Shown here in pieces: positions 2,697 to 26,456 of a DNA stretch of 64,000 bases. A program made the position numbers and the translations under genes. Source of the DNA: Thermoplasmata archaeon (GTDB lineage Archaea; Thermoplasmatota; Thermoplasmata; Lutacidiplasmatales; UBA184); contig DASRSW010000076.1 of the NCBI GenBank assembly GCA_035656275.1, positions 12,740 through 76,739 on the forward strand, written 5' to 3'. The notes beneath the pieces were generated by a model, which searched no databases, was not told the origin of the DNA, and saw only the letters and a program-made list of their open reading frames with translations. How positions within the stretch are numbered: the stretch's first letter is position 1; every line of letters begins with the position of its first letter.

Positions 2697-3070
2697 GAAG
2701 GCCGAGTGAGCCCCGCGACTCGGGGGGGTGTTCCGCCCCCTCCTCATCCTCGGCCAGTGCCAAACATCTGGTTGGCTGCCGTCACATTCCGGCCCTTGAA
2801 CCGAGGGACGATGCGTGGCAGCTAGTCCGTGCCGATCAAGCGCGGACCAGCTAGGACTGCCATGATTGGAGTGATGTCCGCGAGCGTGACGGACGTTTTC
2901 GCTCTGCCCCCCCGATCGGCGGGCGGGGAGCCGCTGGGACGCTACCGTGAAACCACGATAGGGATGGGCGAGGCTGGCGTCTATTTTACAGGGAATTTCG
3001 ATCCTCTCGTGCATCAACTCAAGCGTTGGTGGGACCGACCCCAGACTATCCTGCAACGGGGCCGGCGCAA

Positions 3071-4297
3071 ATGACTCGCAAGAGTCCTACAACCCCGCCC
3101 ATTTCACGAATCATTTCGATTCTCCTCATAGTCGTCACACTGATGGTGGCGTCGACATTCCTAGCGTTCAAAGATGCGTTTGAGATCCCTGAAGCCCCAC
3201 CTACAACAGCGATGACCCCGCACGGCCACCCCCTTGTTAGCGCATCGACGCCGTCGCCAAGAACTCCGTTCTGGAACAACACAACAGTCGAAGAGACTGA
3301 GACGTTCAACTTCGGTCCGCTTTCTTCCCCCTGGGGGTCGTTCGGTCTGACATACGCGTTTGGTGGAGTGATTCTGCTGACTGGCGGAGCCATCGATTCC
3401 GGAACTGAGCGAGGCGGCGAGGTCCGATTGGAGACTCCTGCCTATTCGCTGCTGAACATCACTGTCGCCTCTCACACTGTCTCGGTACCACTGCCAAACC
3501 TCCTTGGAATCGATCAGTCCCTCAATGTAGCCACCTTGGATCTCCAGTTGGAGGTTCCTTACTTGGGAATTCTCACACTGGCCTCCTTCTCCTTGTCGAT
3601 AGTGATTTCAGTAGTACTTGAGGCGACGAGCTCTGTGGTCGGCTGCGGGACGGGGGCGGGAGAGGTAATGTGGGACAGTAGCGGAGCGCGTCAGGTATCC
3701 ACGTGCGCTGCAGGACTCCACCCTGGAGAAATCGTCAGTTCCACGCTGAGTAATCTGAGATTCGCGCTTGCGGCCGGCGTTCAGGCGGAAGCAACTATTG
3801 CCGATGTGTTCACCGATACGATTCCTATTCTCCCATTGACCCCAATCATGAGTGTTGCCGCGCCAGTTTCATTGATTGACTCGAGCTACACGGTAGTTTC
3901 CCCGCCGAGTCACCTTCACTCCTATGTCACCCCTAACCCCGCAACCGATGGTGAGGCCGTCCAGCTCCTCTCAAGCGTTTCGGGAGGTGCGGGAGTAATT
4001 TCGTATTCGTATCTGGGAAGTCTTCCGGGATCGGGGTGCTCTGACGCTGGCCCGGGTGTGATAGCTTGCACCGCGACGGAGCAAGGTAACTTTTCGCTCC
4101 AAGTCGAAGCTACCGACCAACAGGGGGTGAGAACCCTAGGCTACGCGAACTATACGGAAACGGCACCTCCTGGCCCCGACTACAATGGGCTTTCAGGGTG
4201 GTCCACTCTCTCGGTGCTCCAGGCCGGCACCGGACTCCTGATGATCGTGATTGCAGTAGAGTTGGTAGTCATTCTCATCCAGGGGCGTCGGTCATAG
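3071..4297 (+). CDS. Membrane-anchored surface protein with one Cys-bracketed Ig-like (He_PIG-like) repeat and a C-terminal TM anchor
   Basis: Track ORF 3026..4297, with the ATG at 3071 preferred. The N-terminal TM is ISRIISILLIVVTLMVAS and the C-terminal TM is LLMIVIAVELVVILI followed by a basic tail. The repeat SGGAGVISYSYLGSLPGSGCSDAGPGVIACTATEQGNFSLQVEATD matches the repeats of 14307..17207. Confidence 0.75.
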   Translation: MTRKSPTTPPISRIISILLIVVTLMVASTFLAFKDAFEIPEAPPTTAMTPHGHPLVSASTPSPRTPFWNNTTVEETETFNFGPLSSPWGSFGLTYAFGGVILLTGGAIDSGTERGGEVRLETPAYSLLNITVASHTVSVPLPNLLGIDQSLNVATLDLQLEVPYLGILTLASFSLSIVISVVLEATSSVVGCGTGAGEVMWDSSGARQVSTCAAGLHPGEIVSSTLSNLRFALAAGVQAEATIADVFTDTIPILPLTPIMSVAAPVSLIDSSYTVVSPPSHLHSYVTPNPATDGEAVQLLSSVSGGAGVISYSYLGSLPGSGCSDAGPGVIACTATEQGNFSLQVEATDQQGVRTLGYANYTETAPPGPDYNGLSGWSTLSVLQAGTGLLMIVIAVELVVILIQGRRS

Positions 4298-4906
4298 AGG
4301 GTAGCCGCGAGCCACGCGATCCCCCAATGACGGCCCCTCGAGGAGGTCGCGGAGCTTCTCGTGGAGCGCCCGCAACGCGAGCACCTTCTGCTCGAGGTCC
4401 TCCAGGATGACGCGGTTCACGCGGGCGCGGAGTTGAGCCTCGGTCTCGCCGTTCGCGGCGTAGGAGGCGAACCCGCTGCGGGCGGACTCGAACTGGCCCG
4501 CGTTGAAGACGAGCTGGCCGGAGGCCCAGGCGCGGCCGGCCTCGGGCGACGGGGTGGCGTCCTCGTCGGCGTGGGCGATCTCGGGCGCGACGGTGGGAGG
4601 GCGCGGGAGTTCGCTCGCGGGGGTGAATCCTGGTACCTCGGCCAGCCTCACTTTCGGCTTGGCGGACGCTCCTCCGCGGTAGCTCCCGAAGTCGGGGGAG
4701 TGCTCGCGGAGGTAGGCGTGATAGGGGCGCTGCGCGCCGAAGTCCACGACGTAGCGGATCTCGGCGTCGCGGGGGATCGGGAAGCCGCAGCCACAAGAGC
4801 ACTTCCGGGGCCACCGGTTGCCGGTGACCGTGCGAAGGCGGGGGGCGTGGTCGGCAGTGGTCGGGGTTCTCTGCTCGGTCGCGGGCGCGGTGATGCTTTG
4901 CTGCAT
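4292..4906 (-). CDS. Family A hypothetical protein, copy 1 (TVTGNRWPRKCSCGC Cys motif plus C-terminal coiled coil)
   Basis: Track ORF 4292..4954. The ATG at 4906 (MQQSITAP...) gives 204 aa, the same length as the paralog at 25809..26423, and AGGTGA lies 4 nt upstream of it. Similarity to copy 2 is strong from PRLRTVTGNRWPRKCSCGC to LEQKVLALRALHEKLRD. Confidence 0.8.
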   Translation of the reverse strand: MQQSITAPATEQRTPTTADHAPRLRTVTGNRWPRKCSCGCGFPIPRDAEIRYVVDFGAQRPYHAYLREHSPDFGSYRGGASAKPKVRLAEVPGFTPASELPRPPTVAPEIAHADEDATPSPEAGRAWASGQLVFNAGQFESARSGFASYAANGETEAQLRARVNRVILEDLEQKVLALRALHEKLRDLLEGPSLGDRVARGYPL

Positions 4907-4940
4907 CGTTTCACCTCGCGAATGGCAGGTGAAACGATGC
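4903..4940. promoter_or_regulatory. Palindromic element, copy 1 (13/14-bp perfect arms, 10-nt spacer) embedding the SD and start codon of family A
   Basis: gCATCGTTTCACCT (4903-4916), cgcgaatggc, AGGTGAAACGATGc (4927-4940). CAT at 4904-4906 is the A1 start codon on the minus strand. Confidence 0.8.
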
Positions 4941-4989
4941 GGGGTTGGAACCAAGCAGCTTCATTCGCACCGGTCCCTTTCGGCAATCG

Positions 4990-5682
4990 ATGGCCGGTCC
5001 CCTCCCGTCCGACCGACGCGAGTTCGACCTCACCTCCGATGCGGCCGGGGAGTCGCGAGCTCAGCGCTCCTCAATCGGCTCCATCGTCTGGACGTACATC
5101 ATCGGAGCGGTCGCGATCGTCGCCCTCGGAGCGTTCACTCTCTCCGGGTCCATCGTCGGCACGGTCCTGGAGGGATGGGGCGCCATCATTGTCGGGGTCG
5201 GGATCATCGTCGTCGGGACGGTCTACGTCAAGTTCTACCTAGGGAAGAACGAGGTGATCCGCCTCGGCGTGGACAGCGACGGGCTCCGGTTCACATGGAC
5301 GAAGGGCACCACGACCACCTTCGCGTGGTCCGACCCGCGGCTGAAGGTCGACCTATGCCACCTCGAGGGGAACCCGAACGACGTTCTGCCCGCAGATGAC
5401 CCTCGGAGTCGGCGACCGTGGTGGATCGACGCCTGGAAGCCTGCGGGGAGCACCATCGCTGTAGAAACCACGCTACCCGAGGACGCATACCGCGCCCTCC
5501 TCGCGGAGGTCTCTCTCAGGGTACCCGGAGTTCAATCCGTTCCTGCGGCCTACTTCTGTTGGGAGCCGAGCCCCCGTGTTCCTGGCGAGCTGCACCACCG
5601 GAGTGGTTCTAAGCTAAAGCCGGGGGAGTCGACGAATGGCACCCTGACGCGAGTCCGGGGAACGGCCGTGATTGAAAGCTAG
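4990..5682 (+). CDS. Family B hypothetical 2-TM membrane protein with a beta-rich C-terminal domain, copy 1
   Basis: Track ORF 4945..5682. The ATG at 4990 (MAGPLPSDRREFDL) aligns with the copy-2 start MSEPLPSDRLEFDL. TM helices are IVWTYIIGAVAIVALGAFTL and WGAIIVGVGIIVVGTVYV. It is a 230-aa paralog of 26506..27198. Confidence 0.8.
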   Translation: MAGPLPSDRREFDLTSDAAGESRAQRSSIGSIVWTYIIGAVAIVALGAFTLSGSIVGTVLEGWGAIIVGVGIIVVGTVYVKFYLGKNEVIRLGVDSDGLRFTWTKGTTTTFAWSDPRLKVDLCHLEGNPNDVLPADDPRSRRPWWIDAWKPAGSTIAVETTLPEDAYRALLAEVSLRVPGVQSVPAAYFCWEPSPRVPGELHHRSGSKLKPGESTNGTLTRVRGTAVIES

Positions 5683-5930
5683 CACTGTTGCCTCCCGACG
5701 GTCGCGATCTGTGTAGTAAGCGGCCGGCGCATGGAGTTCGCCCTCAGCGCGCTGGGGGCTCTGCTGCATCGCACGTTCCTCGAGAGGGAGGGAACGGGCG
5801 ATGCGTGAACGCCGAATCAGCGACCTCGAGGCTTTCAGTAGGCCGTCAACGCGGGTTGTTAGCCTGATTCGAGGACACCCAGCGCTCGGAGCAATAGATT
5901 AGGCCCCTCAGGCGTAGGGCCGCTAACTCT

Positions 5931-6758
5931 GTGCCAGCGAGTCTAGAGGAAGGCTGGGTCAGGGCGACTGCCCTCATCCAGAACGAAGCAGGGGAGCTTG
6001 GAACCGGATTCTTCGTGGCGCGGAAAGTGGATGAAGCTTCTCTCCGCCTCTTCTTAATCACCAACAAGCACGTTCTAGCTGATACTCGGAAACACAGAGA
6101 TGGGGCCCGCCAGATTGAACTCAATCTGAACCTACGGAAAGACGGCAAGATTGTTGGGACCAAGGCGATCCTCCCCTTGCGTCTTGCGGACGGAAACGCC
6201 ATCTGGCGCGAGCACGAGGACCCTGACGTTGACGTGCTCGCAATCGACGTCACCGCAGTCAAGGTTCAGGTGGTCGACATGGACGTCAAGTGGGCCGGCT
6301 ACGACGGCTTCGCCGATCCGCAGAAGATCGTTGACCACGAGATTACTATGGCTGACGAGGTGATTGCGCTCGGGTACCCACTCGGCCTCAAACAAGGAGA
6401 TACCTTCCTGCCGATCGCGAAATCAGGGATTCTCGCCTCCAAGATTGGAGAGCGAGTTTCCGACACTGTTCAGACCTCAGGTGGGGAACTGCACCACCGA
6501 AACATGCCGGCATTCTTGGTCGACGGCGCGTTCATACCAGGCTCAAGTGGGAGTCCAGTGATCCTTAAACCCATGGTCGGAAGGGTCGTGAGGCGTAACA
6601 TAGTCCTCTCTCCCGCTCCATCCCTGCTTCTTGGAATCATTTCTGAGACCAAGTATGTTCCAGTTAGCACACTCCACGGAGAGAGGCTCGCCCTTCCCGG
6701 AATTGCACTCGCCTTCGACGTGTCGACGATAATAGATGTAATCGAATCCTTCTTTTGA
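5931..6758 (+). CDS. Trypsin-like (chymotrypsin-fold) serine peptidase
   Basis: Track ORF of 275 aa with a GTG start. The catalytic triad context is TNKHVL (His), DVDVLAID (Asp) and IPGSSGSPVI (Ser). No signal peptide is evident. Confidence 0.8.
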   Translation: MPASLEEGWVRATALIQNEAGELGTGFFVARKVDEASLRLFLITNKHVLADTRKHRDGARQIELNLNLRKDGKIVGTKAILPLRLADGNAIWREHEDPDVDVLAIDVTAVKVQVVDMDVKWAGYDGFADPQKIVDHEITMADEVIALGYPLGLKQGDTFLPIAKSGILASKIGERVSDTVQTSGGELHHRNMPAFLVDGAFIPGSSGSPVILKPMVGRVVRRNIVLSPAPSLLLGIISETKYVPVSTLHGERLALPGIALAFDVSTIIDVIESFF

Positions 6759-6785: not shown

Positions 6786-6965
6786 TCACCGAAGTAGACC
6801 ATGAGAAGATCGATTCAAACTCGCCGTGAAACGCCAAGCGGGCACGCTTGTCCCTCGTGCGTCGATAACTCTGGGGGTCCATTGATTACCAGTGACGGAG
6901 GGGAAGCGTGGGGCGGTGCGCGTGGGCGGCTCGGGCCTCGCGGATTCGATGATGCTGGAGGGCAT
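6786..6965 (-). pseudogene. Truncated, diverged family A copy (59 codons, below the ORF-track cutoff)
   Basis: My own translation is MPSSIIESARPEPPTRTAPRFPSVTGNQWTPRVIDARGTSVPAWRFTASLNRSSHGLLR*. The first 8 aa and ~33 nt of the 5' end are identical to copy 2 (25809..26423). The VTGNQW motif is retained and the CSCGC motif is lost. Confidence 0.5.
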
Positions 6966-6998
6966 CGTTTCCCCTCGCGAAGGGCAGGTGAAACGAGG
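6963..6998. promoter_or_regulatory. Palindromic element, copy 2 (degenerate)
   Basis: CATCGTTTCCCCT, cgcgaagggc, AGGTGAAACGAGG. It has the same 13+10+13 layout with 2-3 arm mismatches. Confidence 0.6.
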
Positions 6999-7132
6999 CA
7001 GTAGACCGCGTTGAGTTCAGAGGAAGCCCCATCCGAGGGCGTCTAGTGGTCCGGTCCCTTGCGTTCAGAAGAGTTCTTGACTCAAGGTGGGTACTGCGCT
7101 TGCGTGGGTGAATCAGCTTACAGCAGAAATGA

Positions 7133-7996: not shown

Positions 7997-8148
7997 GATT
8001 TCGGTGCGCGATCACACTTCCTCGTGAAGGGGAAAACGGGCGATACTTTTAACTGCCGGTGGGGCGACATGTGGCTTGCAGTCCTTCCAGAATGGCTGGA
8101 ACCGGCCCGACGAGGATTCTTACGGTACGACGCCCTTGAAGCGGCCCA

Positions 8149-11656: not shown

Positions 11657-11946
11657 GCACTGCGGCTGCCTTCTGGCGCGGCAGCTCGGGACCCGGATCC
11701 AAAGCTGCCGAAGGCAGGAGTTCCAACTGAACGCCGGTATTTAGCCATTGGTTTGAACTCTAAACAGTGGCACCTAGGTGGGATCGCGGGCTGATTCGCT
11801 GCTCAGAGTCTCACCGGTGGAAGAGGACGTTGAGTGTGTAGGGCGGAGTACAGTGCTCTGCGGCCACTATAGGAACGCTGGTCCGCAGTTAAGAACAGGG
11901 GAGAAAGTCTCATGGGTTGGCTCGCCATTCGGACCTCGGGGGCAGA

Positions 11947-14310
11947 ATGGTCACCCCTCTTCGCGAGCTCATAGCGTGGGCCGCCTGCCTTGCCGTTCTC
12001 TCGACAGGCCTGCTCGATTCCGCAATGGGATCGAATGTGCCTCTCGCGACGGAGGATTCGGGCCCGGCGGCCCTACTTAACCAAGGGTCGAATCCCTCTC
12101 CCGCCCAAGGCCCGGATTCGGTCCATCTAAGCTGTTCCTCGAATCCTGACGCCGTCAGTCGATGTGGGCTAGGCCCGCAGGCGAACTCGGCTGGAGGGAC
12201 TCAGGGGGCCGGGTGGCTGAACATATCGGCCCGCGTCGGAACTCCCCCGACCCCGCGGAGCTTTGGACGGAGCATCGCCTACGATCCCCGCGACGGGTAT
12301 GTGGTGATGTTCGGCGGTGACGCACCTACGGGCGGGTATCTTTCCGACACGTGGGCGTTCAGCAACGGCAGCTGGAAGGAACTCACCACGAATGCGTCTC
12401 CCCCCGCTCGCGACCACTCTACCCTAGCGTGGGACCCTGTGGACCAGTACCTCGTCCTCTTCGGGGGCTCCGGAAGCGTGGTTTACAACGATACCTGGGC
12501 ATTCGCGAGGGGCGAATGGACCCAATTGCACCCTCCCGCGGCCCCTTCTCCGCGATGGTCCGCCGGAATGGTGTGGGATGCACGGGACGGGACGATTCTA
12601 CTGTTCGGAGGTTGCGCCGCGGGCTCCGAGCAAAACGATACCTGGTCGTTTCTCCATGGGAACTGGACCGAACTCTCCCCGACGACGTCGCCATCGCCCC
12701 GGGGTGATTCGGGAATGGCCTACGACGCGGTCGACAGTCAGGTCGTGTTGTTTGGGGGACTGAGCGCGAATTGGGGGGCACTGGATAACGACACTTGGGC
12801 CTACTCCGCCGGTACCTGGACCGAAATCAGTTCCCCGGGTTCCCCTCCCGCCCGGTATGACCCTTCGATGGCATTCGACACAGCGATTGGCCAAGTTGTG
12901 CTCTTCGGTGGTGAAGGAGCCCTCGCTAGCCTCGGGGATACTTGGGGGTACGCCAACAATCGTTGGGTTGGCCTCTCGGAGTCGAACGTACCGGCCTCGC
13001 GGTCCTTTGGGATGTTGGTGTACGACCCGGACCTGGATGGCCTCCTGCTCTACGGAGGGGCCACGGTGGGCTCCGGGACTTCTACTGAGACTTGGGAATT
13101 CTACACCCTGAACCTCACGGCTCGAGTTTCCTCCCCATCCGAAGTTGCACCAGAATCGTTGGATGCCACCGCGAATTCGACGGGAGGGGTGAATCCGATC
13201 GCGTATCTCTGGCGGTTTGGTGACGGGGGCTCCTCCAACCTCTCCTCGGCCACCCACGCGTATCTCGAGCCTGGAACCTACCAGGCCACGATCACATCAA
13301 GCGATTATTTCGGTGTGACGAGTGAGCGGAGTTTTACGGTCATCGTCCTGCCCCTGTTGGTGGTACGTGCGGGAATTACCCCGTCCTTCGGCTCTGTTCC
13401 CCTAGCGGTATCCTACTACGCCGTAGCCAGCGGGGGGATCCCGCCTTACCAATACAACTGGACCTTGGGCATCGACTCTTGGTCGAACGCCTCGAATGGC
13501 AATGTAACGTACCCGTCGGCCGGCGACACTATCGTCACACTGAGTGTGCGCGACTCGGGGGGCCAAGCGCTCCAGAAGGAGTTCGTACTCGTCGCTCTCG
13601 CACCCACTCCGACCAACCTCTCGGTCTCCATCCTGGCGTCCCGTTCGACCTGCGACGTTCCCTGCGCTTTGACCTTCACGGCGACGGTTGGGGGAGGAGT
13701 CGGACCCGAAACGTATGCATGGGGGTTCGGCGACGGCGCTGGGTCCTCGGCTCCGGCACCTTCGCACCAATTCCTCTCGGCTGGAAACTATACGGTCGCG
13801 CTCGAAGTGCACGACAGTGCGACCGGCGTCGGGCTTTCCAATGTCTCGATTAGTGTGAACCCGTCGCTAACAGTGATTCCGCACGCTTCCGTACTTGTGG
13901 GCCCGACTCCTCTCCTCGTGACGTTCACGTCGAACGTGGGCGGTGGGGCTGGCCCTTACCGAGTAGCCTGGACATTCGGCGATTCGAGTTCCCTCGAATC
14001 GAGCGGAAGCCAGCACACCTATACTTTTCCCGGAACCTACACTGTGAGGCTCAGCGCGGTCGATTCGACCGGGACGGAGGCGAACGGCACCCTCGAGATC
14101 GTAGCGCTACCGACTGCGACAAGTGTTGGAGAAGCGGGGATGGGCGGGAGTCTTCTCACCCTGGCCATTCCAGTCTCGATCGCTATTGCCGGCGGGGAGG
14201 TGGCTCTCGGACTGCTGCTGAGTAAAGTCCCCAAGAAGCCCATGGGGGCGTCGGCCGCCCAGCCGGGCCAAGCACCCCGACAGGGCGATTCCAGTTCTCG
14301 CCGAGAATGA
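11947..14310 (+). CDS. Kelch-repeat beta-propeller plus ~4 PKD domains; surface protein with a C-terminal TM anchor
   Basis: Track ORF 11917..14310, with the ATG at 11947 giving the signal-like sequence MVTPLRELIAWAACLAVLS. About six blades carry FGG...DTW motifs. PKD signatures include WRFGDGGSS...HAYLEPGTY, WGFGDGAGS...HQFLSAGNY and WTFGDSSS...HTYTFPGTY. The C-terminal TM is LAIPVSIAIAGGEVALGLLL. Confidence 0.9.
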   Translation: MVTPLRELIAWAACLAVLSTGLLDSAMGSNVPLATEDSGPAALLNQGSNPSPAQGPDSVHLSCSSNPDAVSRCGLGPQANSAGGTQGAGWLNISARVGTPPTPRSFGRSIAYDPRDGYVVMFGGDAPTGGYLSDTWAFSNGSWKELTTNASPPARDHSTLAWDPVDQYLVLFGGSGSVVYNDTWAFARGEWTQLHPPAAPSPRWSAGMVWDARDGTILLFGGCAAGSEQNDTWSFLHGNWTELSPTTSPSPRGDSGMAYDAVDSQVVLFGGLSANWGALDNDTWAYSAGTWTEISSPGSPPARYDPSMAFDTAIGQVVLFGGEGALASLGDTWGYANNRWVGLSESNVPASRSFGMLVYDPDLDGLLLYGGATVGSGTSTETWEFYTLNLTARVSSPSEVAPESLDATANSTGGVNPIAYLWRFGDGGSSNLSSATHAYLEPGTYQATITSSDYFGVTSERSFTVIVLPLLVVRAGITPSFGSVPLAVSYYAVASGGIPPYQYNWTLGIDSWSNASNGNVTYPSAGDTIVTLSVRDSGGQALQKEFVLVALAPTPTNLSVSILASRSTCDVPCALTFTATVGGGVGPETYAWGFGDGAGSSAPAPSHQFLSAGNYTVALEVHDSATGVGLSNVSISVNPSLTVIPHASVLVGPTPLLVTFTSNVGGGAGPYRVAWTFGDSSSLESSGSQHTYTFPGTYTVRLSAVDSTGTEANGTLEIVALPTATSVGEAGMGGSLLTLAIPVSIAIAGGEVALGLLLSKVPKKPMGASAAQPGQAPRQGDSSSRRE

Positions 14311-17207
14311 CCGAGTGGATCTGGGGGTCGGTGATGAACCGGGCAGGGTCTCAATCCCACCCGACCTCTTCTGGGATTGGAATGCGTCGACGCTTCGCAC
14401 CAAGCACCGTGGTGCGCACATGCTTTACGATCGCCATTTCAGTCTCTCTGCTTGGACTTTCTCCCCCGTCGGTGGCATCGGCGATTACTTCTCTGACTGT
14501 CGCACCTGGAGCCGAGAGTCCCTTAGGCTCAGGCACGACCCTCGGAGGGGTCGCCGAACTACTTCCCCTGCCCTTGATCCATTCCTCCTCATCCGAAGGT
14601 CTTCACTCGAGCTGGGGTTCCCATTCTACCATCGTAGGAAGATCGGCCCCCCCGCTCAATCAACTTCCCCGGCTCGCCCCAGCTGCGAATCTCACGCTGG
14701 GGTGGGTCAACCTGACATCTACTGACGGTTCTCCTCCTCCCTCAACTTACGGGGCAAGCATGGCGTACGACCCCCTCCTCCCGGGAACTGTGTTGTTCGG
14801 AGGTGAGGTCGATGGGCTTCCCACGAATGTCACTTGGATTTCCGCGAATCTTTCGTGGACTCACCAATCGTACGCCCCCGGCCCCTCACCTCGGTCCGGT
14901 GCCCAATTCTCATACGATCCGGGGACGGGCTCATTGATCCTGTTCGGCGGGTGGGATGGAACGCGTTATCTCAACGATACCTGGTCGTTCTCGGGACGGG
15001 GATGGGCCAATCTCACTCCAGCGTTGTCGACGACCCCCCCCGCGAGGGCCAACGGCTCGCTGGCGTTCGACTCGCGCGATAGTGTATTGGTTCTCTTCGG
15101 GGGGTGTGGGTCCACCTGCCCATTGGGCGACACCTGGCTGTTCAACGAGACAGGGTGGTCCAGTTGTTGCTCAACATTTGGACCCGGGCCGAGGTCAAGC
15201 GCCGGCCTGACCTTCTACGCCGCCAACAACGAACTGACCCTCTTCGGCGGCTGTTCCGGACGGGCGGGACTCAACGACACGTGGGCCTTCTCTGCTGGCA
15301 ATTGGGCTCAGATCACTCTCGCGGGAGGACCTCCGCCTTCGTGTCCAGCCGTATTGGCGCGAACCGCGACTCCGGGTTTCGATGGGCTCGGCCTCCGATC
15401 GGGGGGGGAGACCTGGGTGTTGAATTCCTATTCTTGGTTCAACCTTACAGCGCAAACGGTTCTGACGCCGCCGAGCTCGAGCTCTTGCGACTTCGCACCA
15501 TCCGACGTGCAAACCCTAGACCTTTTGGTGTGCCCTGACGCCGGACTCAATTCGACCTCCCTTGTCTGGAGCCTGGGCGTCCCGATCATTCTGACGGTGG
15601 CTGTTACGCCCGTCAGATTGGATGTGAATCAATCCGTTAGTTTCAATATGTCCGGTCTCTCCGATGACTACCCACTCACCTTCGAGTATCTCGGTCTCCC
15701 CCGCGGTTGCTCCACTGTTAACTCGTCGGCATTGGACTGCACTCCAACCGGGTCCGGGCAGTTCGTGATTACCATCGTCGCTAGCGACGAGGTGGGACAG
15801 AGTGAGAGAGCGCTCGCCAGTCTTCAGGTAAATGATGCGCTCCGAGTTGAAGCACTACGAGTCGGCACCGGCAACCTAACGGTAGGAACGAATCTATCGG
15901 TCGACACTCTCTTCCGAGGGGGCACTCCGGGACTGAATTTCTCGTACGATGGCCTTCCCCCCGGCTGCCCGTACACGAACGCGTCTGCGTTTACCTGCCG
16001 CCCGAATGTAAGCGGAGTCTACGACCTGCGAGTCCTTGTGAGAGACGCCGCCGGTGAAGCGGGAACCGCGGAAAGGGTGATACAAGTCGACTCTGCCCTC
16101 TCTGCCCTTTCCTTTTCGGCGGTTCCGTCGACGCTCGACATAGGAGAATTGACGAGGCTGACCCTCTCGTCTGCGGGGGGTACCCCACCTCTGCAGTACA
16201 GTTACTCAGGGTTACCGGAGCCCTGCACCACGCTTAGCACTCCGGTGCTCTCTTGCCTTCCGTATCAGGCCGGGATCTTCCCGATCCAAGTGTCGGCCGA
16301 AGATTCCTCGGGCGCTACTCTCACTTCCGTTGTCCAACTCCAAGTGAACCCCGACCTAGGTGGATTGGTTCTTCTTCCTAGTTCCTCAACCGTCGAGCTG
16401 GGACAATCGCTTCAATTCGAGGCGCGATTTTCCGGAGGAACCACGCCGGTTACCCTAACGTTCCAGGGCATACCGGGATGTGTTGGGGCGGGGGACCTGA
16501 ATTTCAGCTGTCGTCCATCGGTGGCGGGCTGGTTCTCCGAACGGCTGACGGTCCGTGATTCGACGGGGGCGAGCCTCGCGACCTTGGCCGTGGTTGACGT
16601 GATTCCATCCCTCCAGGCGGAGTCGCTTTCGGCCGAACCCTATCCCGTGGAACAAGGTAGGAGCACGATCTTCTCGATAGGAGTCGTCGGGGGGGTTCCC
16701 CCCTTCGTTACTCGCGCGACGGGCCTCCCCCTTGCATGCGCGCCCGCCCCGAATGTGAGTTCTTGGACCTGCACCCCGCCCGAGCCGGGGGAGTTCCCCA
16801 CCGTTCTCGAGGTGACGGATGGGGCCGGAGTCCAAGTGAACTCGACCTTCTCCCTCAGTGTCCTTGACTCACTTAAGGTGCGGCTCATCGCCCTCCCCAT
16901 GCCCCCGTACTCCAGTGAAGTCGAGCTCTCCGCCTCCATCTCCGGCGGATCCGGTCCCTTCACGTACGAGTACCTTGGACTGCCTCCGGGGTGCTCCGCA
17001 CCGTCCGCTGGGAAGGTTTACTGCAATTCCGATGCACCCGGTGAGTATCACGTCGAAGTTGACGTGACGGACTCGATCGATGGCGTGAACAGTTCCGCCA
17101 CGGAGGTATCCGTGGGTCCCGGTCTTGGGGCCGTGACTTTGCCGGCAGTCCTCGTGGCAGCGGGAGGCGCTTTCGGAATTTGCGTATTGGCCCGGGGTCG
17201 ACGCTAG
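14307..17207 (+). CDS. Kelch-repeat propeller plus ~7 Cys-bracketed Ig-like (He_PIG-like) repeats; surface protein with a C-terminal TM anchor
   Basis: Track ORF of 966 aa. An ATGA overlap joins its start to the upstream stop (14307-14310). The repeats follow SGG.P..Y.Y.GLPPGC....L.C.P...G.Y...V.V.D. The C-terminal TM is LPAVLVAAGGAFGICVLA followed by RGRR. Confidence 0.9.
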   Translation: MTEWIWGSVMNRAGSQSHPTSSGIGMRRRFAPSTVVRTCFTIAISVSLLGLSPPSVASAITSLTVAPGAESPLGSGTTLGGVAELLPLPLIHSSSSEGLHSSWGSHSTIVGRSAPPLNQLPRLAPAANLTLGWVNLTSTDGSPPPSTYGASMAYDPLLPGTVLFGGEVDGLPTNVTWISANLSWTHQSYAPGPSPRSGAQFSYDPGTGSLILFGGWDGTRYLNDTWSFSGRGWANLTPALSTTPPARANGSLAFDSRDSVLVLFGGCGSTCPLGDTWLFNETGWSSCCSTFGPGPRSSAGLTFYAANNELTLFGGCSGRAGLNDTWAFSAGNWAQITLAGGPPPSCPAVLARTATPGFDGLGLRSGGETWVLNSYSWFNLTAQTVLTPPSSSSCDFAPSDVQTLDLLVCPDAGLNSTSLVWSLGVPIILTVAVTPVRLDVNQSVSFNMSGLSDDYPLTFEYLGLPRGCSTVNSSALDCTPTGSGQFVITIVASDEVGQSERALASLQVNDALRVEALRVGTGNLTVGTNLSVDTLFRGGTPGLNFSYDGLPPGCPYTNASAFTCRPNVSGVYDLRVLVRDAAGEAGTAERVIQVDSALSALSFSAVPSTLDIGELTRLTLSSAGGTPPLQYSYSGLPEPCTTLSTPVLSCLPYQAGIFPIQVSAEDSSGATLTSVVQLQVNPDLGGLVLLPSSSTVELGQSLQFEARFSGGTTPVTLTFQGIPGCVGAGDLNFSCRPSVAGWFSERLTVRDSTGASLATLAVVDVIPSLQAESLSAEPYPVEQGRSTIFSIGVVGGVPPFVTRATGLPLACAPAPNVSSWTCTPPEPGEFPTVLEVTDGAGVQVNSTFSLSVLDSLKVRLIALPMPPYSSEVELSASISGGSGPFTYEYLGLPPGCSAPSAGKVYCNSDAPGEYHVEVDVTDSIDGVNSSATEVSVGPGLGAVTLPAVLVAAGGAFGICVLARGRR

Positions 17208-17325
17208 TCGACAGCCCAAGTGCCATAGGCCTTGAGTCGCGTGATTGGGACGGAGCCGCCCAGATGCGGGGCCCGCCGACGAATCGGTCCTCTACCTTGC
17301 CGGGCGAAAGCAGGCATCCGGACCG

Positions 17326-19644
17326 CTATTCGACTTTGTCATTGGGCGGGGAGCCCGAATCCGGCGCGACTCCCTCATCGCCGGCTGGCCGGGCACCCGA
17401 ATCATCCGAATTCGACGCCCGGCGACGGCGGCTGTAGATCACCCATGAAACCACTCCTCCCCCTGCCGCCGCCAGCACGAGGCCAACTCCAAGCAGCAGC
17501 CATTGCGTGGGTGTGAGGCCGCTCGAATGGACGGGGGTCGGCTGTGTCGGGAGCGCGTTGACGGTCAGCACGAACGTGGATACGCGCGTGAATCCGACCG
17601 AGTCGCGGAGTGTGAAGGAAACCGTGAAGTTTCCGGGGGTGGCGAAGGCGTGGGTGCTGTTCGGGCTGAACGAAACGGCCCCATCGCCGAAGTTCCATGT
17701 GAGATTGTAGGGTGTGGTTCCGCCGGAGGCAGTCGACGTGAATCGAACGGTGGTGTTCACAACGGTCGCTGTAACATTCGCGTTGGCCACGACGATTGGA
17801 TCCGGGTGAACCAGCACGTTGAGTACGGCGCTGTCGTTCACACCCAGCGCATCGGTGACCGTCACCGAGGGCGAGAATGTCCCCGCCCTTCCGAAGGCGT
17901 GGGATGCATTCTCGAGCAGGCTGACGTTGCCGTCGCCAAACTTCCAGACAAAAGTAAACGGCGCCGTCCCGCCCGCCGCGGTCCCATTAAAGAAGTCGCG
18001 AGTCCCCACGTCCGTGACGTTGCGCGCCAGGGTACCCGCGGCGACGGGGGAGGGGTTCACGCGGACGGTGACCGACGCATTCGCGGCAATACCCCTCGCA
18101 TCGACCCCGACAAAATGCGCGGTGTAGGTCCCGGCCGCCCCATAGATATGGGCGACCGACTGAACATCGCTGAAGTTTCCATCTCCGAAGGTCCAGTTGG
18201 AAATGATCGGCGCCGTTCCACCCGTCACGGAAACCGTGAACAGCACCGGCACCCCCGAAGTGACTGGGTTCGGGGCTACCGCGGGAATCGCCGTCGGGTC
18301 GGGGTTGACCTGGACTTGGCGGGTTGACGTTGCGTTGGCGCCAACCTGGTCACTGATCTTCTCCGTCACCAGGAACGTCCCCGGCTGGCTCGGCCGGCAC
18401 GAGAAGTTGAACGCCCCGGTAGGCTGAGCGCACCCCGGCGGGACGGATTCAAACCGCGCAGTGTAGGGGGAAACTCCCCCCTGGGCGGAGGATCCGATAG
18501 CGACGGTCTGATTCAGGTCGATCGTACTACTCGAGAGGGTAAGCACTTGCGTCAGCGGGGCCGATTCGAGCCAAGTGTCGGTCATCGTCCCCGATAGGGT
18601 AACGCCCCCGAACATCAAGGTGTATCCATCTGCGCCATCGTAAGTCATCTGGGCCTCATCCCTCGGGGGCGGGGCGTGGGCGATGAATGGGGTCTGGTTG
18701 GTCCAGGAGCCGTTGGAGTACGCCCAGGTATAGTTTCCGGCAACCCCGCCCGTGAGCAGGATCCCTTCACGGAACGCTGCGTCGTAGGAAAAGCCCGTAG
18801 GAACACCGGCGGGGGGAAGGACCGCCGGTGTCTGATGGGTCCACTGGCCCTGAGTGAATGTCCACATGTCGCCATAGACTTGGGTCCCATCCGGCGAGAT
18901 CCCCCCGAAGAGGACCATCCGCGAGAGCTGCGGATCGTAGAACAGGGCTTCGTGTTGGCGGTTGGGAACGGAGTAAGTCGTTGACAGTTGTGTCCACGTC
19001 CCGTTCGAGTACGTGTAGGTCGAGCAATCGATCCCGGCGGACGGCAACACAAGCAGCACCTTCTGGAGCGCTGGGTCGTACGCCATCCCAGCCCCGGTGC
19101 CAGAGTTAAGGGTCTGGTTAACGGACCGTTGGGTCCAGTTACCGCCGGAGAAAGACCATGTCCGGCCCGTAGCATTCAGCATCAGGACATATTGGTCCGC
19201 CGCGTCGTAGGTCATTGGAACCAGGTTGTCGGCGGCCGGTTCGGTCGCGCACTTTGGAGCCGAGGTAGACCCGGAGCAAATCTCTCTCCACGTACCGTTC
19301 GCGTAGCTCCACGTATCCGGCAGGTAGGGACCCGTTCGAGGCACGCCCGAGAACAGCAGAACATAGTGATCGAGGGGATCGTAGGTGACTGCCGCGCCGG
19401 ATCTTGCTCCCGGACCTCCCGATACCGTCCAGTTCGTCCAGTTCAAGTGGAGGTTACCCGAAGCGAGCGGCGCCTCCGCCTTCAAGAGCGAGGAGGTTGC
19501 CGCTGACCGCGGCGACGTGCCTGGGGATTGGGTTTGAGTGCAGGAGAAGGTTCCGAGGCCCTGAGCTAGGACCAGTAGGACAGTGATCAGTGCAGGCAAG
19601 TGGGTGGCTTTCGGGTGGGCCGGCAGGATTCCGGGACCCCGCAT
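17326..19644 (-). CDS. Kelch-repeat propeller plus one Ig-like repeat plus ~4 PKD domains; surface protein with a C-terminal TM anchor
   Basis: Track ORF of 772 aa. PKD signatures are WTFGDGNFS, WKFGDGNVS and WNFGDGAVS. The TM is WLLLGVGLVLAAAGGGVVSWVIY followed by RRRR. N-x-S/T sequons are numerous. Confidence 0.9.
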   Translation of the reverse strand: MRGPGILPAHPKATHLPALITVLLVLAQGLGTFSCTQTQSPGTSPRSAATSSLLKAEAPLASGNLHLNWTNWTVSGGPGARSGAAVTYDPLDHYVLLFSGVPRTGPYLPDTWSYANGTWREICSGSTSAPKCATEPAADNLVPMTYDAADQYVLMLNATGRTWSFSGGNWTQRSVNQTLNSGTGAGMAYDPALQKVLLVLPSAGIDCSTYTYSNGTWTQLSTTYSVPNRQHEALFYDPQLSRMVLFGGISPDGTQVYGDMWTFTQGQWTHQTPAVLPPAGVPTGFSYDAAFREGILLTGGVAGNYTWAYSNGSWTNQTPFIAHAPPPRDEAQMTYDGADGYTLMFGGVTLSGTMTDTWLESAPLTQVLTLSSSTIDLNQTVAIGSSAQGGVSPYTARFESVPPGCAQPTGAFNFSCRPSQPGTFLVTEKISDQVGANATSTRQVQVNPDPTAIPAVAPNPVTSGVPVLFTVSVTGGTAPIISNWTFGDGNFSDVQSVAHIYGAAGTYTAHFVGVDARGIAANASVTVRVNPSPVAAGTLARNVTDVGTRDFFNGTAAGGTAPFTFVWKFGDGNVSLLENASHAFGRAGTFSPSVTVTDALGVNDSAVLNVLVHPDPIVVANANVTATVVNTTVRFTSTASGGTTPYNLTWNFGDGAVSFSPNSTHAFATPGNFTVSFTLRDSVGFTRVSTFVLTVNALPTQPTPVHSSGLTPTQWLLLGVGLVLAAAGGGVVSWVIYSRRRRASNSDDSGARPAGDEGVAPDSGSPPNDKVE

Positions 19645-19646
19645 TC

Positions 19647-21890
19647 CTATTCTCCCCGGATCCTTTCGCGGGGCCTGGGAGCTCCACCACGCAAGGCAGT
19701 CGCGACACGAATCGCCTGCGGCATGGCCTGGGGTTCCGGACGGAGTGCGACACGACTGAATCCCGCCGCGAGAAGCCCGGCGGCCGTGGCCTGGAGGGAG
19801 AGCGGCGTGCCACCCGCAGACGTTAGCAGGGCTATCGGTGACGAAACGGGTACTGGGGACGCCACTGGTGAGGGAGGCGTCGGGACGGGCGGGCCCAACC
19901 CAGGCGGGGGCGGCGGCGATGTGGAGGGAGGTCCCGACTGTGTGCTCGGAATCGGAACGACAGCGACGAGCGCCGGGGGATACGAAACCCCACGAATGGT
20001 TGAGTTACCGTAGGGGTCGAATCGGAATTCCGTCAGGTTTGCCACCACCGAAGAAGACCCGTCCACCATACAAACGACAGTTGTGCACGCGTCGACCGCG
20101 ACCTGGGCAGGGGGAGGGGTGTTAACTGCCACGTAGAAGGAGGCGGACCACTCGTCCCCCAAGAACAGAACGTCGTTGAGTGGGTTCGTGCTCCAGCTCC
20201 AGTCCACGGAGGCCACTCCCCCGGTTTTGACTGTGAAGTTCACGACGCCGGGCGGACAAGTTGACGGTAAACCCCCACGGACGCACGCCGTCACGATGGG
20301 TCTTGACAGGTCGACCCCCACCCCCTTCCAAGGGACAAACCGGAACACCGGCCGGTCCAGCCAGTGAGTTGGTCCGTAATGGAGAGTTGAGTTGGACGAG
20401 GAATTGTAGTCGAACGGCATTGTGATCACTTCCGCACGTAGGCTTACTCGAGCGTCGATCACCCCCGCAGGACAGTTCGGCACGGTCACGCTGCAGACGC
20501 TGGTAGGTGTGACGGAAATAGTGAGCGAGATGTTAGACGGGGCGATTCCGAGGATCCAGGTGTCACCTAGGTTCCCAGTCGAGTAAAGAGGAAACGGAAC
20601 GCAGCACGCCCAGCCCCCGAAGAGCAGCATTCCGCCTTCCGTTGGGTCAAAAGTGAATCCCGCCAGCTGCCGACCCGCTGGTCCTTGGATTCCCAGGTCG
20701 ACCCAACTGGTCCCCGTGAATCCCCACGTGACGTTGGATTCGTAGCCGGTCGTCCGGTCGGCGCCACCGAAGAACAAGACGATCCCGTCGATGGGGTCAA
20801 ATGCGGCGACCGGGTGGAGCTCAAAGGGCGTTCCGACATTCGGAAGTTTCGTCCAGCCATTTCCGGCGAATTCCCAGGTAGCGTTCGAGCCGGCCGTAGG
20901 CGACTCCTCCACTAGCAGGACTTTGCCCGCGGTGCCGTCATACGCGAGGGCCCCTTCCGGAACTTCGTACGCCGAAGGTCCCCCGGAACTGAGCAACTCC
21001 GTCCACGATCCGCGAGAAAAGCTCCAAGTGTCGTTGTAGCCCCAGCCACCCCAGAGCAGAACGGCCGTGGACGCCGGGTCGAACACCATGAACGTCCCAC
21101 TCCGAGCTGGGGGGCCAGAAACGTTCAGCTCCGTCCAGGCACCTCTGGAGAACTTCCACGTCTCTCCCGAAGGATAGTGCACCCCGTTCGAGATGTTCTG
21201 GAAGAATCCTCCAAACGCCAGAACGTACCCGTCGGTCGAGTCATACGTCATTGCAGGTGAGCAAACGTTGGTAGGGCCCGGAATCGAAAGGTTCGTCCAG
21301 ACTCCCGCCGAGTAGATCCAGGAGTCTGTCAAGCAACGACCATTTCCGACGTTGGACTTGTTTGCAAAGGTTCCCCCATAGAGGAGAAGGTAACCGTCGG
21401 CGGCATCGTACGCCACTCCCGGCTGAGTCCGATTCCCCGGCGTCATCGTCGGAAAGAGCTCCTTCCAATCGGCTCGCAGTGGGGAAATGAGAGGGTTGGG
21501 ACCAACCGATCTCTCGGGTGTTGGAAGTAGGCATGCTGACTGAACCAGTGGAGTTCTCGAAGAAGGGCAGATCGCTTGGGAGGGTACGTCAATCTTCGCG
21601 TCACTCGTCGCGTGGTTCGCCCAGAGTGGGATTCCGCGCAAACTCTGAGTGTTGGCGTTCCAAACGAACTCGGTGGATACTAACACCATGAAGACCAGCG
21701 TACAAAGTGCTACAGCTCGAAACACGCTGTGCGCTCTGGGAGCCGAGAGGTGGTGAATTCGCCTACGCTCCGGGATCCGCTTCCAGCGGCCACTCAGCTT
21801 GGGTACAGCTTCCCCCTGATCAAGGGGTTGGGCCGGGCGGGTGCCAGACGACGCCAAGGCCGAAAGACTGGGGCGAACCTCCAATGGCAT
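19647..21890 (-). CDS. Kelch-repeat propeller surface protein with a beta-rich C-terminal region, a Pro-rich stalk and a TM anchor
   Basis: Track ORF of 747 aa whose stop lies 2 nt before the start of 17326..19644. Blades carry FGG...D[TS]W motifs. The stalk is PPSTSPPPPPGLGPPVPTPPSP. Confidence 0.85.
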   Translation of the reverse strand: MPLEVRPSLSALASSGTRPAQPLDQGEAVPKLSGRWKRIPERRRIHHLSAPRAHSVFRAVALCTLVFMVLVSTEFVWNANTQSLRGIPLWANHATSDAKIDVPSQAICPSSRTPLVQSACLLPTPERSVGPNPLISPLRADWKELFPTMTPGNRTQPGVAYDAADGYLLLYGGTFANKSNVGNGRCLTDSWIYSAGVWTNLSIPGPTNVCSPAMTYDSTDGYVLAFGGFFQNISNGVHYPSGETWKFSRGAWTELNVSGPPARSGTFMVFDPASTAVLLWGGWGYNDTWSFSRGSWTELLSSGGPSAYEVPEGALAYDGTAGKVLLVEESPTAGSNATWEFAGNGWTKLPNVGTPFELHPVAAFDPIDGIVLFFGGADRTTGYESNVTWGFTGTSWVDLGIQGPAGRQLAGFTFDPTEGGMLLFGGWACCVPFPLYSTGNLGDTWILGIAPSNISLTISVTPTSVCSVTVPNCPAGVIDARVSLRAEVITMPFDYNSSSNSTLHYGPTHWLDRPVFRFVPWKGVGVDLSRPIVTACVRGGLPSTCPPGVVNFTVKTGGVASVDWSWSTNPLNDVLFLGDEWSASFYVAVNTPPPAQVAVDACTTVVCMVDGSSSVVANLTEFRFDPYGNSTIRGVSYPPALVAVVPIPSTQSGPPSTSPPPPPGLGPPVPTPPSPVASPVPVSSPIALLTSAGGTPLSLQATAAGLLAAGFSRVALRPEPQAMPQAIRVATALRGGAPRPRERIRGE

Positions 21891-21923
21891 GACCGGCCCC
21901 CTTTCAAAGAAGGCCGGGGTTCA

Positions 21924-24900: not shown

Positions 24901-25496
24901 TGACGAGCGGACGGGCAGTTTCCCGCATGCGCACAGTTCAGGGCAGTCGTGACGTTCCACCACGTCCCGGCGACCTCGTTGTACTGCCAGGTATCACCGA
25001 AGACGTCACCGGTCGAATTCGCCCCTCCAAATAGCAGTGCCCCCTCGACGGTTCCATTCATGAAGAGGGCGATCGCGGCCCCAAACCGTGCTGCTGGGGA
25101 TTGCAAGTGCGGGAACACAGGAGGAGGCGGCCCGACCAACGGATGAGGGGAAGTGCGCGGCACGCTCGCGGAAGAACAACTCATCCCGCCGCCGGAAGAA
25201 GAGCAGGTCATCGGGAGACCAGCGGCGGGACCTTCGCCTCGGCCAAGGGAGGATATCGCCTGTGCCATCAATGTGGTGCCGGGGCGCGCAGCGGAGCCGA
25301 GAACAAGGTGAGACTGTGCCGACGCGTGACCAACCGAGGGCGGAATCGCTCCGGCGGGAACGCAGAGCAGCGTAACGATAAGTACCGACCCTAACGCCCC
25401 GGCGAGAGTAGTCCGAACCCTGCGCCGCCAGCTCGACCACCCAACCTGCCTGGCCCTGCTCGTCCCGTCAACCGCGGCCTCCCCCTTCGCCCGCAT
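21924..25496 (-). CDS. Giant multi-propeller Kelch-repeat protein (~18 blades), with an N-terminal anchor and no PKD, Ig or C-terminal anchor
   Basis: Track ORF 21924..25640, with the ATG at 25496 preferred because it precedes RRRVRTTLAGALGSVLIVTLLCV. The [GNSAH]DTW[xFY] blade motif recurs about 18 times (GDTWQY, QDTWYY, NDTWYW, HDTWEL, KDTWTF, ADTWGY, SDTWLF, GDTWRF and others). Confidence 0.9.
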   Translation of the reverse strand: MRAKGEAAVDGTSRARQVGWSSWRRRVRTTLAGALGSVLIVTLLCVPAGAIPPSVGHASAQSHLVLGSAARPGTTLMAQAISSLGRGEGPAAGLPMTCSSSGGGMSCSSASVPRTSPHPLVGPPPPVFPHLQSPAARFGAAIALFMNGTVEGALLFGGANSTGDVFGDTWQYNEVAGTWWNVTTALNCAHAGNCPSARHDASMVYDSEDSYTLLFGGCTVSPPGWIQSVPGCDSTASHMKQDTWYYTDPAALVGTWTNVNPATKPAVRYAAGLADDKGDGYVLLFGGCGTTCPYQQTWKYLAGVWTQLTPSPQPAGRYGMAMAYAQIVVSPALPVPTAQVSSGTAVVLLFGGCSSGSGGCPNGALNDTWYWTAGAWAQLLSATSCSAGPGICPSPRYYPGGTSYFYNTVTTDYGLLIYGGAGPDGTILGNATDVHGGDWWIYPTLAGANGWQQLMAPPGYVAFINGFFRPSPAAPIPPRYDTSLVGISGGEVMFGGSADTGLSIGDTWLASHSPNRAFAGELWPPPLPSARYGATMTRDFNDKTDVLFGGCGSSCGNASTWDFAAYRPTYMWVSNTPLLTAANSPSSRMNASMTNITPSGGTDSVVLFGGLSTSGTLLNDLWSYAAGVWTPQTPTGAGPPSARQGATFAYDETDGYAVLFGGCGAATCPLHDTWELTGSPAAGYIWAAGPTSGPPGRYGAAMTWDERDSYILLYGGCGTTCPLKDTWTFVGGVWTQCLTASCTTAPPAARWGSTMSFDEVDNEAVLFGGCGSTCPYADTWGYAAGNWYKITPTTSPPGRYDAVSTYDLDGQYVLMFGGVGPAIKLMGEFGWGFYAGNWYPAPILNQIPKSPAPAPRYGASLAANSAGNTVLLVGGCQNTIIGPCGPLSGQSDTWLFTNGGWREFCAGCGPGPRWDAGLSFDPVDGYFVLFGGCKAVVVVCVPPLTLADTWTFNGATWTQLAIAGPSARSDVGMTWDVVDSRVILFGGFGCTGAAAPACGDTWSFITGAWTFVTTPTAPTARFGPAMTFDLTDAYVVLYGGQGAGGVVFGDTWRFTLSTGWVQVSASGPLAPRYDAAIAFDLTDGIVILFGGATVGGIPLGDTWRYHVGIWTGAPTTWAPPAEWGMGMAFDQNAGPNGYVTLFGGSAATGYYAPGAPAPGAIGTGNGGSWLYFNTPNPNGKPYWNDSSMYV

Positions 25497-26423: not shown

Positions 26424-26456
26424 CGTTTCACCTCGCGGGAGAGGGGTGAAACGATG
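26421..26456. promoter_or_regulatory. Palindromic element, copy 3
   Basis: CATCGTTTCACCT, cgcgggagag, GGGTGAAACGATG give 12 bp plus one G-T pair. The mirrored plus-strand ATG (26454) opens only an 11-codon ORF. Confidence 0.8.

Follow-up and report, generated by a model that had tools for sequence, protein, structure and literature searches.

A 5' hairpin enclosing the Shine-Dalgarno motif and start codon of an uncharacterised multi-copy gene in uncultured Thermoplasmata archaea

Introduction

Why does one palindrome recur at the start codons of a single gene family, and does it act as RNA or as DNA? The question is raised by a stretch of 64,000 nucleotides (nt) from a Thermoplasmata archaeon (GenBank assembly GCA_035656275.1, contig DASRSW010000076.1, positions 12,740 to 76,739 of the forward strand), hereafter called the window. 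At 4904-4939 the window carries the inverted repeat CATCGTTTCACCT-CGCGAATGGC-AGGTGAAACGATG, which encloses both a Shine-Dalgarno (SD)-like motif and the start codon of a gene for an uncharacterised protein, here named A. An initial annotation of this sequence left two readings side by side: an RNA hairpin that hides the SD motif and the start codon, or a DNA operator for a dimeric regulator.

Hairpins at the 5' end that sequester SD and AUG are well known in bacteria and their mobile elements. To our knowledge, few conserved cis-regulatory mRNA structures have been described in Archaea, and very few of these outside riboswitches have comparative support. The A hairpin forms a new and well-supported family, found in uncultured archaea and linked to a multi-copy module that is itself uncharacterised, and it is unusual in having a leader open reading frame (ORF) that is either fused or coupled to the main gene and in forming one-directional arrays of gene heads. 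In our view it is probably a cis-acting element of the mRNA, a hairpin in which the SD motif and AUG of A are sequestered.

Results

Hairpin copies in the window

The palindrome at 4904-4939 consists of two perfectly matching 13-nt arms around a 10-nt spacer, and the pair G4903:C4940 extends the stem to 14 base pairs (bp). A pattern search thus bore out the description given in the initial annotation. Two paralogous genes begin within such a palindrome:

4292-4906, minus strand: gene A1, family A, 204 aa (from translation)
25809-26423, minus strand: gene A2, family A paralogue, 204 aa, 81% identical to A1 (from translation)

Searching the window for CATCGTTTCACCT-N10-AGGTGAAACGATG with at most three mismatches gave four matches (starting at 4904, 6963, 26421 and 27403), against 0.00 expected from 100 dinucleotide-preserving shuffles of the window. 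The copy at 6963-6998 carries two mismatches and those at 26421-26456 and 27403-27438 one each, the last being a CAT to CGT change that removes the minus-strand ATG; the spacer opens with CGCG on the plus strand in all four. A covariance model found seven copies or relics in the window, all on the same strand, among them three that the initial annotation had missed (5764-5809, 29417-29452 and 8011-8044). Its list of five was therefore too short, and only four of its entries stood: the fifth, at 28741-28775, is so degenerate that its arms are about 8/13 complementary, and counting it would bring the total to eight. The features are as follows:

4901-4945, minus strand: hairpin copy 1, perfect palindrome, heads intact A1; model 52.9 bits; RNAfold -28.7 kcal/mol, z = -6.4
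4927-4940, minus strand: 5' arm of copy 1
4903-4916, minus strand: 3' arm of copy 1
4911-4917, minus strand: GAGGTGA of copy 1
4904-4906, minus strand: start codon in copy 1
26418-26462, minus strand: hairpin copy 2, heads intact A2; model 40.0 bits; RNAfold -24.4 kcal/mol
5764-5809, minus strand: hairpin of the common type (GCATCGCCCGTTCC-CTCCCTCTCG-AGGAACGTGCGATGC); model 57.9 bits, the top score in the window
6960-7004, minus strand: hairpin with two arm mismatches, heads a truncated A remnant; model 44.2 bits
27400-27444, minus strand: hairpin with mutated start codon (ACG); model 35.3 bits
29417-29452, minus strand: hairpin relic (CCACGTTCC-CACCTTCGCGA-GGAACGTGG) with no ATG and no A sequence after it; model 31.7 bits
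8011-8044, minus strand: degenerate hairpin relic, no ATG; model 23.4 bits
28741-28775, minus strand: doubtful relic, missed by the covariance model even at E <= 10

As the initial annotation had proposed, the CAT of the left arm is a minus-strand start codon. It is the ATG of both intact A genes and heads truncated remnants at other copies, and we agree that the mirrored ATG on the plus strand is not a start. The stem of copy 2 has a single C.A mismatch at its inner end when read on the A-sense strand. The hairpin at 5764-5809, which lies 80 nt 3' of the stop codon of a neighbouring gene (B1, described below), is followed by MQQS of A only and then by unrelated sequence. The remnant at 6960-7004 starts at an ATG (6963-6965) and runs for 59 open codons, of which the likeness to A fades after about 26, while the hairpin at 27400-27444 heads an A pseudogene fragment (residues ~18-51, at 27244-27345).

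The copies fall into two same-strand arrays, 4904/5767/6963/8011 and 26421/27403/28741/29417, each of which ends in an intact A; the upstream members consist of a hairpin and 0 to ~50 A-like codons, followed by unrelated sequence. The flanks of the palindrome copies are also homologous, so that duplication of gene modules suffices to explain the recurrence as long as the window alone is considered. Evidence that the hairpin is more than a duplicated passenger comes from other genomes. A gene for a trypsin-like peptidase (Pfam Trypsin_2; 5931-6758, plus strand) lies between two of the hairpin copies, antisense to them.

The initial annotation did not recognise the element as a described motif, and no described counterpart emerged here either. 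Rfam 15 gave no match in the whole window and only chance-level matches to miRNA models in 4850-5000, and a literature search returned nothing that describes the hairpin. A, for its part, belongs to no named protein family. RNA thermometers of the ROSE and fourU kinds were considered and rejected: the stems here are perfect, G+C-rich and 13-14 bp long, with a mean of -26 kcal/mol, and the match to the Rfam ROSE model reached 13.8 bits (E = 6), where the gathering score is 45.

Family A

Family A has more than 471 homologues, nearly all from Thermoplasmata metagenome-assembled genomes (MAGs) and soil and peat metagenomes. All are annotated as hypothetical; they have neither names nor Pfam domains. 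One of them, a hypothetical protein of a Thermoplasmata archaeon MAG, is 100% identical to the 204-aa protein of the window, which identifies the host as an archaeon. The N-terminal region forms a small beta domain with the pattern CxCxC...H, in which C36, C38, C40 and H69 are invariant, and the C-terminal region is highly conserved (WASGQLVFNAGxFESARSGFADY...LEDLEQKVLALRALHEKLRD). Conservation of the protein begins at the methionine encoded within the hairpin (MQxSI, with S4 invariant).

Searches of A against Pfam, PHROG, NCBIfam and PADLOC gave nothing significant, nor did those of its neighbours B and C (described below), and PDB sequence profiles were also empty. An AlphaFold2 model, whose mean predicted local distance difference test score rose from 59 to 77 with a more diverse alignment, shows the small beta domain and, C-terminally, a beta-hairpin with a long helix; Foldseek of this model against PDB returned no match below E = 3. 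No relative of A was found in the viral contigs of IMG/VR, where four exact 18-mer matches are attributable to chance and lack the hairpin. Some variants contain a duplicated N-terminal CxCxC domain (L031:~2989-3810, L014:~1095-1520 and L048:3028-3711), and some of these are frameshifted.

Conservation of the hairpin at other A genes

We collected 48 loci from species-representative genomes (L001-L048) and 80 from metagenomes, and a second protein search was seeded with a divergent member of the family. Across 134 related loci, a hairpin of the same design stands 5' of almost every A start. The hosts are uncultured soil and peat Thermoplasmata archaea. The design comprises a stem of 13-14 bp, a loop of 10-11 nt whose 3' half is CGCGA, and a 3' arm that extends from the GG of GAGG to the ATG. 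The commonest forms are GCATCGCTCGTTCC-CCTCTTCGCGA-GGAACGAGCGATGC and GCATCGCaCGTCCCT-GCCTTCGCG-AGGGACGTGCGATGC; the TTTCACC/GGTGAAA form of the window is a minority type, seen also at L018, L049, L064, L086 and L100.

A scan of all the sequence gathered yielded 137 distinct hairpins. Of these, 84 precede full-length A ORFs and 36 precede truncated ones, and in 17 the ATG has been lost. The ATG lies 6-15 nt past the GG of GAGG in 120 of the 137, and at exactly 10 nt in 97. There are 25 sequence types of the right arm, and in each the left arm matches. Among 97 non-redundant upstream regions, the outer base of the stem (about position -36 from the ATG) marks a sharp onset of conservation, with none further upstream.

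These loci dispose of the notion that the palindrome is functionless and has simply been carried along as A and its neighbour were duplicated within one genome. The homologous flanks of the window copies are what would be expected of such a passenger, and the initial annotation had allowed for a local accident of duplication. Nevertheless, more than 130 loci in many MAGs and metagenomes carry the hairpin, with arms that covary, and it persists where the proteins share only 40-45% identity; these data refute this explanation and leave it with practically no probability.

Covariation between the arms

The pairing of the arms was assessed on 74 distinct hairpins, aligned with MAFFT and without any fitting to the structure. 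One row (L004_2968, from L004:2931-2973) proved to be the domain V/VI RNA of a group II intron, and dropping it left the conclusion unchanged. Standard pairs occupied 89.3% of the cells, against 27-48% when the 3' partner was slid by one to three columns; the overall ranges were 89-91% and 24-49%. Double-sided changes were found in 7 of the 14 pairs (69 cells, against 24 in shuffles). The covariation score was 0.192 against 0.100 in shuffles, and none of 500 shuffles reached the observed value. A model-fitted alignment of 150 hits gave the same picture. For example, among 97 sequences the pair -24:-8 is T-A in 47 and C-G in 43, and non-Watson-Crick in 7, while the pair -28:-4 is T-A, A-T or mismatched. 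On this comparative evidence, the pairing of the arms is under selection.

The compensatory-change check that the initial annotation had suggested, run here on both alignments, favoured an RNA role. The lengths of the arms tell the same story: the window type has one base fewer in each arm than the common type, which brings the outer CATCG and CGATG blocks 2 nt closer together (36 versus 38 nt), and because the shortening is matched in both arms, it suits a helix; a dimer that contacts paired half-sites on duplex DNA would not accommodate it.

A double-stranded operator for a dimeric regulator, possibly A itself, was the other reading that had been put forward, with the divergent region between A and a neighbouring gene B as its setting:

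4990-5682, plus strand: gene B1, 230 aa, predicted membrane protein, divergent from A1 (translation; no Pfam match)
26506-27198, plus strand: gene B2, B1 paralogue (73% identical), divergent from A2

In the window the palindrome is a nearly perfect inverted repeat that directly precedes a gene and falls within the 83 nt between two divergent genes, which is how an operator could look. However, B was not found beside A in any of the first 48 related loci (L001-L048), and on this comparison B is local to the window and outside the conserved unit. Both the total length and the spacing of the half-sites vary, as the base lost from each arm of the window type illustrates, and paralogues within one genome (L001, L003) have half-sites that differ yet stay complementary. 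The spacer is asymmetric, its 3' half being better conserved than parts of the arms. Moreover, neither A, B nor C, the usual downstream partner of A, matches a helix-turn-helix, ribbon-helix-helix or other DNA-binding domain, and the structure search with A was empty as well, although A does carry the CxCxC...H motif. An operator is accordingly a highly improbable explanation, and of the two readings that the initial annotation had left standing, the hairpin that hides SD and AUG is the one favoured by the loci in other genomes, the covariation of the arms, the compensated indels and the coupled leader ORF described next.

A leader ORF in a divergent subfamily

The divergent subfamily is 40-45% identical to A, and its members are often 300-370 aa long. 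At the loci L129, L131, L133, L134 and L046 a hairpin lies about 65 nt upstream of the annotated start. Its stems, which differ considerably from those of the main family, are GGAUUCCC/GGGAAUCC, GGACUCCC/GGGACUCC, GUUGUCCC/GGGACAAC and CCUUUCCCUC/GAGGGAAAGG, and a further one, CACG...CGUG, ends in a GUG start. The YUUCGCGAGG block of loop and SD motif is mostly kept; in L131 it reads UCGAGCGAGG.

The start codon in these hairpins, ATG or, in the CACG...CGUG stem, GTG, opens an ORF of 21-22 codons, and in every case examined the TGA of this leader overlaps the main ATG (ATGA):

L129:2436-2504: leader ORF
L131:2436-2504: leader ORF
L133:2439-2504: leader ORF
L134:2439-2504: leader ORF
L046: leader with GTG start, ending at the main ATG (L046:1882)

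In the main family, the leader is fused in frame and constitutes the variable first ~22 residues of A. Since the leader is either coupled or fused in frame, the hairpin start codon is real and its reading frame is under selection, and whatever gates the leader start also gates A. Gene callers start the genes of the divergent subfamily at the downstream ATG.

Stability and decay of the hairpin

In the window, the common-type hairpin at 5764-5809 folds at about -33 kcal/mol with flank, and the copy at 6963 folds no better than shuffled sequence (z = -0.6). Over all loci, the mean fold energy was -26.2 kcal/mol for hairpins that head intact genes, -24.0 kcal/mol where the gene is truncated and -20.6 kcal/mol where the ATG is lost. 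The weaker folds at dead genes indicate that the hairpin is maintained only with a live gene. That it decays together with the gene argues for a part in the expression of that gene and against an autonomous DNA element.

A model for translational control of A

Taken together, these data suggest the following model. The palindrome would encode a 5'-terminal stem-loop of the A mRNA, A being the predicted first gene of a small multi-copy operon that elsewhere would consist of A and C. The 3' arm of this RNA would hold the SD-like GAGG(T/A/G) and the AUG, mostly 10 nt past the GG, and the 5' arm would be its exact complement. In a transcript that contains the full hairpin, the ribosome-binding site and the start codon would be locked in a helix of 13-14 bp and translation of A would be very low. 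It would rise only when the helix is opened or the 5' arm removed; a helicase or a binding protein could bring this about, as could processing or transcription that begins within the stem. In the divergent subfamily, the same gate would act on the leader ORF, from which ribosomes may be passed on to the main gene via the ATGA overlap.

Gene C and the A-C unit

Gene C encodes 84 aa (MFEFRLRILDV...; MFEFRLRILDVRERE...) and lies 15-60 nt downstream of A in 88 of 109 intact copies (for example, L003:3655-3909). A G-rich, SD-like pentamer precedes 65 of 84 C genes. Both A genes of the window lack C, and each instead faces a divergent B. Conservation of the A-C unit ends at the C stop codon, with nothing conserved beyond; bounded in this way by the stem base and the C stop, the conserved unit fits a transcript.

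C and the orthologue at L133 gave sub-threshold matches to UPF0150 (E = 0.096 and 0.026; 13-15 bits against a cut-off of 27.3), and a profile search of C against PDB returned no match. A has no HicA or other toxin signature, and PADLOC was negative. The layout of A and C hints at a small multi-copy conflict or toxin-antitoxin (TA)-like module. In the divergent subfamily the downstream partner differs, being a 133-aa protein or a GNAT acetyltransferase.

This layout bears on another way in which an RNA hairpin could work, namely as the binding site through which protein A or C regulates its own synthesis, or as a 5' protective or processing structure that sets the half-life of the mRNA. Near-invariance of the 3' arm and of the adjoining half of the loop (CGCGAGGrACGwGCGATG) goes beyond the needs of pairing, which is suggestive of a bound partner; the TA-like arrangement of two genes in many copies, together with the weak UPF0150/HicB-like hints in C, points the same way. 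Conservation, moreover, sets in exactly with the stem base, as if this were the 5' end of the RNA. Set against this, neither A nor C has a recognisable RNA-binding domain, and the stem is very stable without any protein. SD and AUG lie inside the helix in almost every copy, which occlusion explains more simply. We therefore regard a binding or protective role as rather unlikely compared with sequestration of SD and AUG.

One-directional arrays and a group II intron

The arrays seen in the window recur elsewhere. Among the 62 loci whose flanks are complete, 35 additional hairpins were counted; every one stands upstream of the intact gene and in the same orientation, and there are none downstream. 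Across L001-L128, the array heads consist of a hairpin and an A-like ORF of 0 to ~146 residues, followed by unrelated genes; the stretches that separate the hairpins encode Kelch, NHL, zinc-ribbon and membrane proteins.

A group II intron lies exactly between the hairpin ATG and the next codon in L004 (956-3000) and L005 (443-2487), and also in L069 and L090. Its junctions read ...GCGATG|GTGCG...CTAC|CAGCAGAGC, it matches RF02003 and RF00029, and an ORF for a reverse transcriptase with maturase is present at L004:1557-2846. As predicted from these junctions, splicing would restore ATG|CAGCAGAGC (MQQS). The intron domain V/VI RNA that appeared in the pairing alignment forms a perfect hairpin at the 3' end of the intron (L004:2931-2973) and mimics the A hairpin. 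Group IIC introns are known to insert directly behind inverted repeats, among them terminators and attC sites (PMC1702495, PMC7923331). The A palindromes resemble integron attC sites and group IIC homing repeats in forming same-orientation arrays of imperfect palindromes with unrelated genes between them, and the group II intron directly 3' of the stem is a further likeness to the latter. Unlike attC sites, they are accompanied by no integrase and carry an SD motif and an ATG, and the segments start with truncated A codons rather than being promoterless cassettes.

Could the palindrome then act as DNA, as an extruded or single-stranded hairpin at which recombination, insertion or breakage occurs and which, as the left edge of a duplicating unit, builds the arrays, in loose likeness to integron attC sites or the ends of IS200/IS605 elements? 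The strictly upstream position of the extra hairpins, the 3'-truncated A remnants joined to unrelated genes that they head, the sharp start of homology at the stem and the intron placed exactly after the stem ATG in L004 and L005 all speak for this, and divergent members adjoin a DUF932 gene, a DNA methylase gene with an ATPase gene or, at one locus only, a serine recombinase. No recombinase or transposase is consistently linked, however, and no domain of this kind (IntI, TnpA HUH-Y1 or RAYT) was found in A, C or the window neighbours. Neither a second hairpin or repeat nor any conserved structure marks the other end, 3' of the A-C unit, and no viral contig holds a relative of A. The weakening of the hairpin once the gene is dead also speaks against a role as DNA, and such a role gives no reason for the conserved GAGG, the ATG or the frame of the leader ORF. 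On balance we judge it unlikely that this is what the palindrome is for.

It is very unlikely, in our estimation, that the hairpin is in addition the recombination or insertion site of an archaeal integron-like capture system, in which unrelated genes are stacked upstream of an intact hairpin-A-C unit. A, with its CxCxC...H domain and coiled coil, alone or with C, could in that case be the machinery or the selected end-point. Candidate captured segments are membrane protein B, the trypsin-like peptidase and Kelch, NHL and zinc-ribbon proteins.

Discussion

We favour sequestration of SD and AUG by an mRNA hairpin as the explanation of the palindrome, and several observations weigh against it. 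A helix of about -26 kcal/mol would nearly silence A unless some factor opened it. No TATA-like box lies at a fixed distance upstream in the 97 non-redundant upstream regions, and the presence of the 5' arm in the mRNA is a prediction. The one-directional arrays and the intron at the 3' edge of the stem imply that the palindrome matters at the DNA level too. Mismatches on the A-sense strand comprise 17 G.U and 42 A.C, which does not favour the sense RNA, a comparison confounded by G+C-biased mutation and shared ancestry; exactly this bias would arise if such mutation acted on a T-rich 5' arm whose 3' partner is constrained. Finally, conservation of the loop's 3' half (CGCGA) and of much of the 3' arm exceeds the needs of pairing and of the SD motif, which hints at an extra, sequence-specific partner.

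Control of gene expression by comparable structures has been reported for several mobile elements and small modules. In IS200, a stem-loop in the 5' untranslated region of tnpA sequesters the SD and limits translation (PMC4513863). Like it, the A hairpin stands at the left boundary of a repeated unit; unlike it, the A hairpin is archaeal, has the start codon itself in the stem and precedes a gene that is not a recognisable transposase gene. Nor is there an evident antisense RNA, a terminator hairpin or a second end repeat at A. Fold-back inhibition of the transposase mRNAs of IS10 and IS50 is a further analogue.

The mRNAs of type I toxins (hok, tisB, aapA1) have 5' structures that keep the primary transcript inert until it is processed, and some hok-type systems use a coupled leader ORF. 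What A shares with them is a very stable local structure that masks the ribosome-binding site in a small module present in many copies. The differences are that A is a protein of 204 aa without a toxin signature, that its partner C is protein-coding and that no antisense RNA is known. The operator hairpin of the MS2 and Qbeta coat proteins contains the start codon and the SD region, and its loop is conserved in sequence. All of this holds for the A hairpin as well; the phage operator, though, is weak and needs its protein, whereas the A stem reaches about -26 kcal/mol alone.

The A hairpin offers more than 130 examples with clear covariation, a fixed link to SD and start codon and, in the fused versus the ATGA-coupled leader, a natural "experiment" that shows the gated start codon in use. 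The A-C module is abundant and uncharacterised and resembles conflict or TA-type systems, and it provides a handle on the control of SD-led initiation in these archaea. In addition, the covariance model is ready for annotating A loci and pseudogenised gene heads, some of which gene callers start at the wrong codon or report as spurious ORFs.

Other features of the window

The 83-nt spacer between A and B contains a single A+T-richer box, CTTCATTC at 4957-4967 (with TTCATT at 4960-4965), which corresponds to GTTACATT at 26473-26484 at copy 2. It lies about 27 nt upstream of the B ATG, while the stem base of the A hairpin on its other side is about 23 nt away. It is more simply a promoter of B, and its position suggests a leaderless B mRNA, although the box might serve both directions.

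Between the two A arrays, at 11917-25640, lie five large genes (747-1238 aa) with Kelch beta-propeller domains, three of which also contain PKD domains. These genes probably encode surface proteins. A family of 60-nt repeats at 21207-23408 mirrors the Kelch repeats. The G+C content is 56-65% in 1-32000 and 60-70% in 32001-64000, and the first half, in which both A arrays and the genes for surface proteins lie, may represent a variable island.

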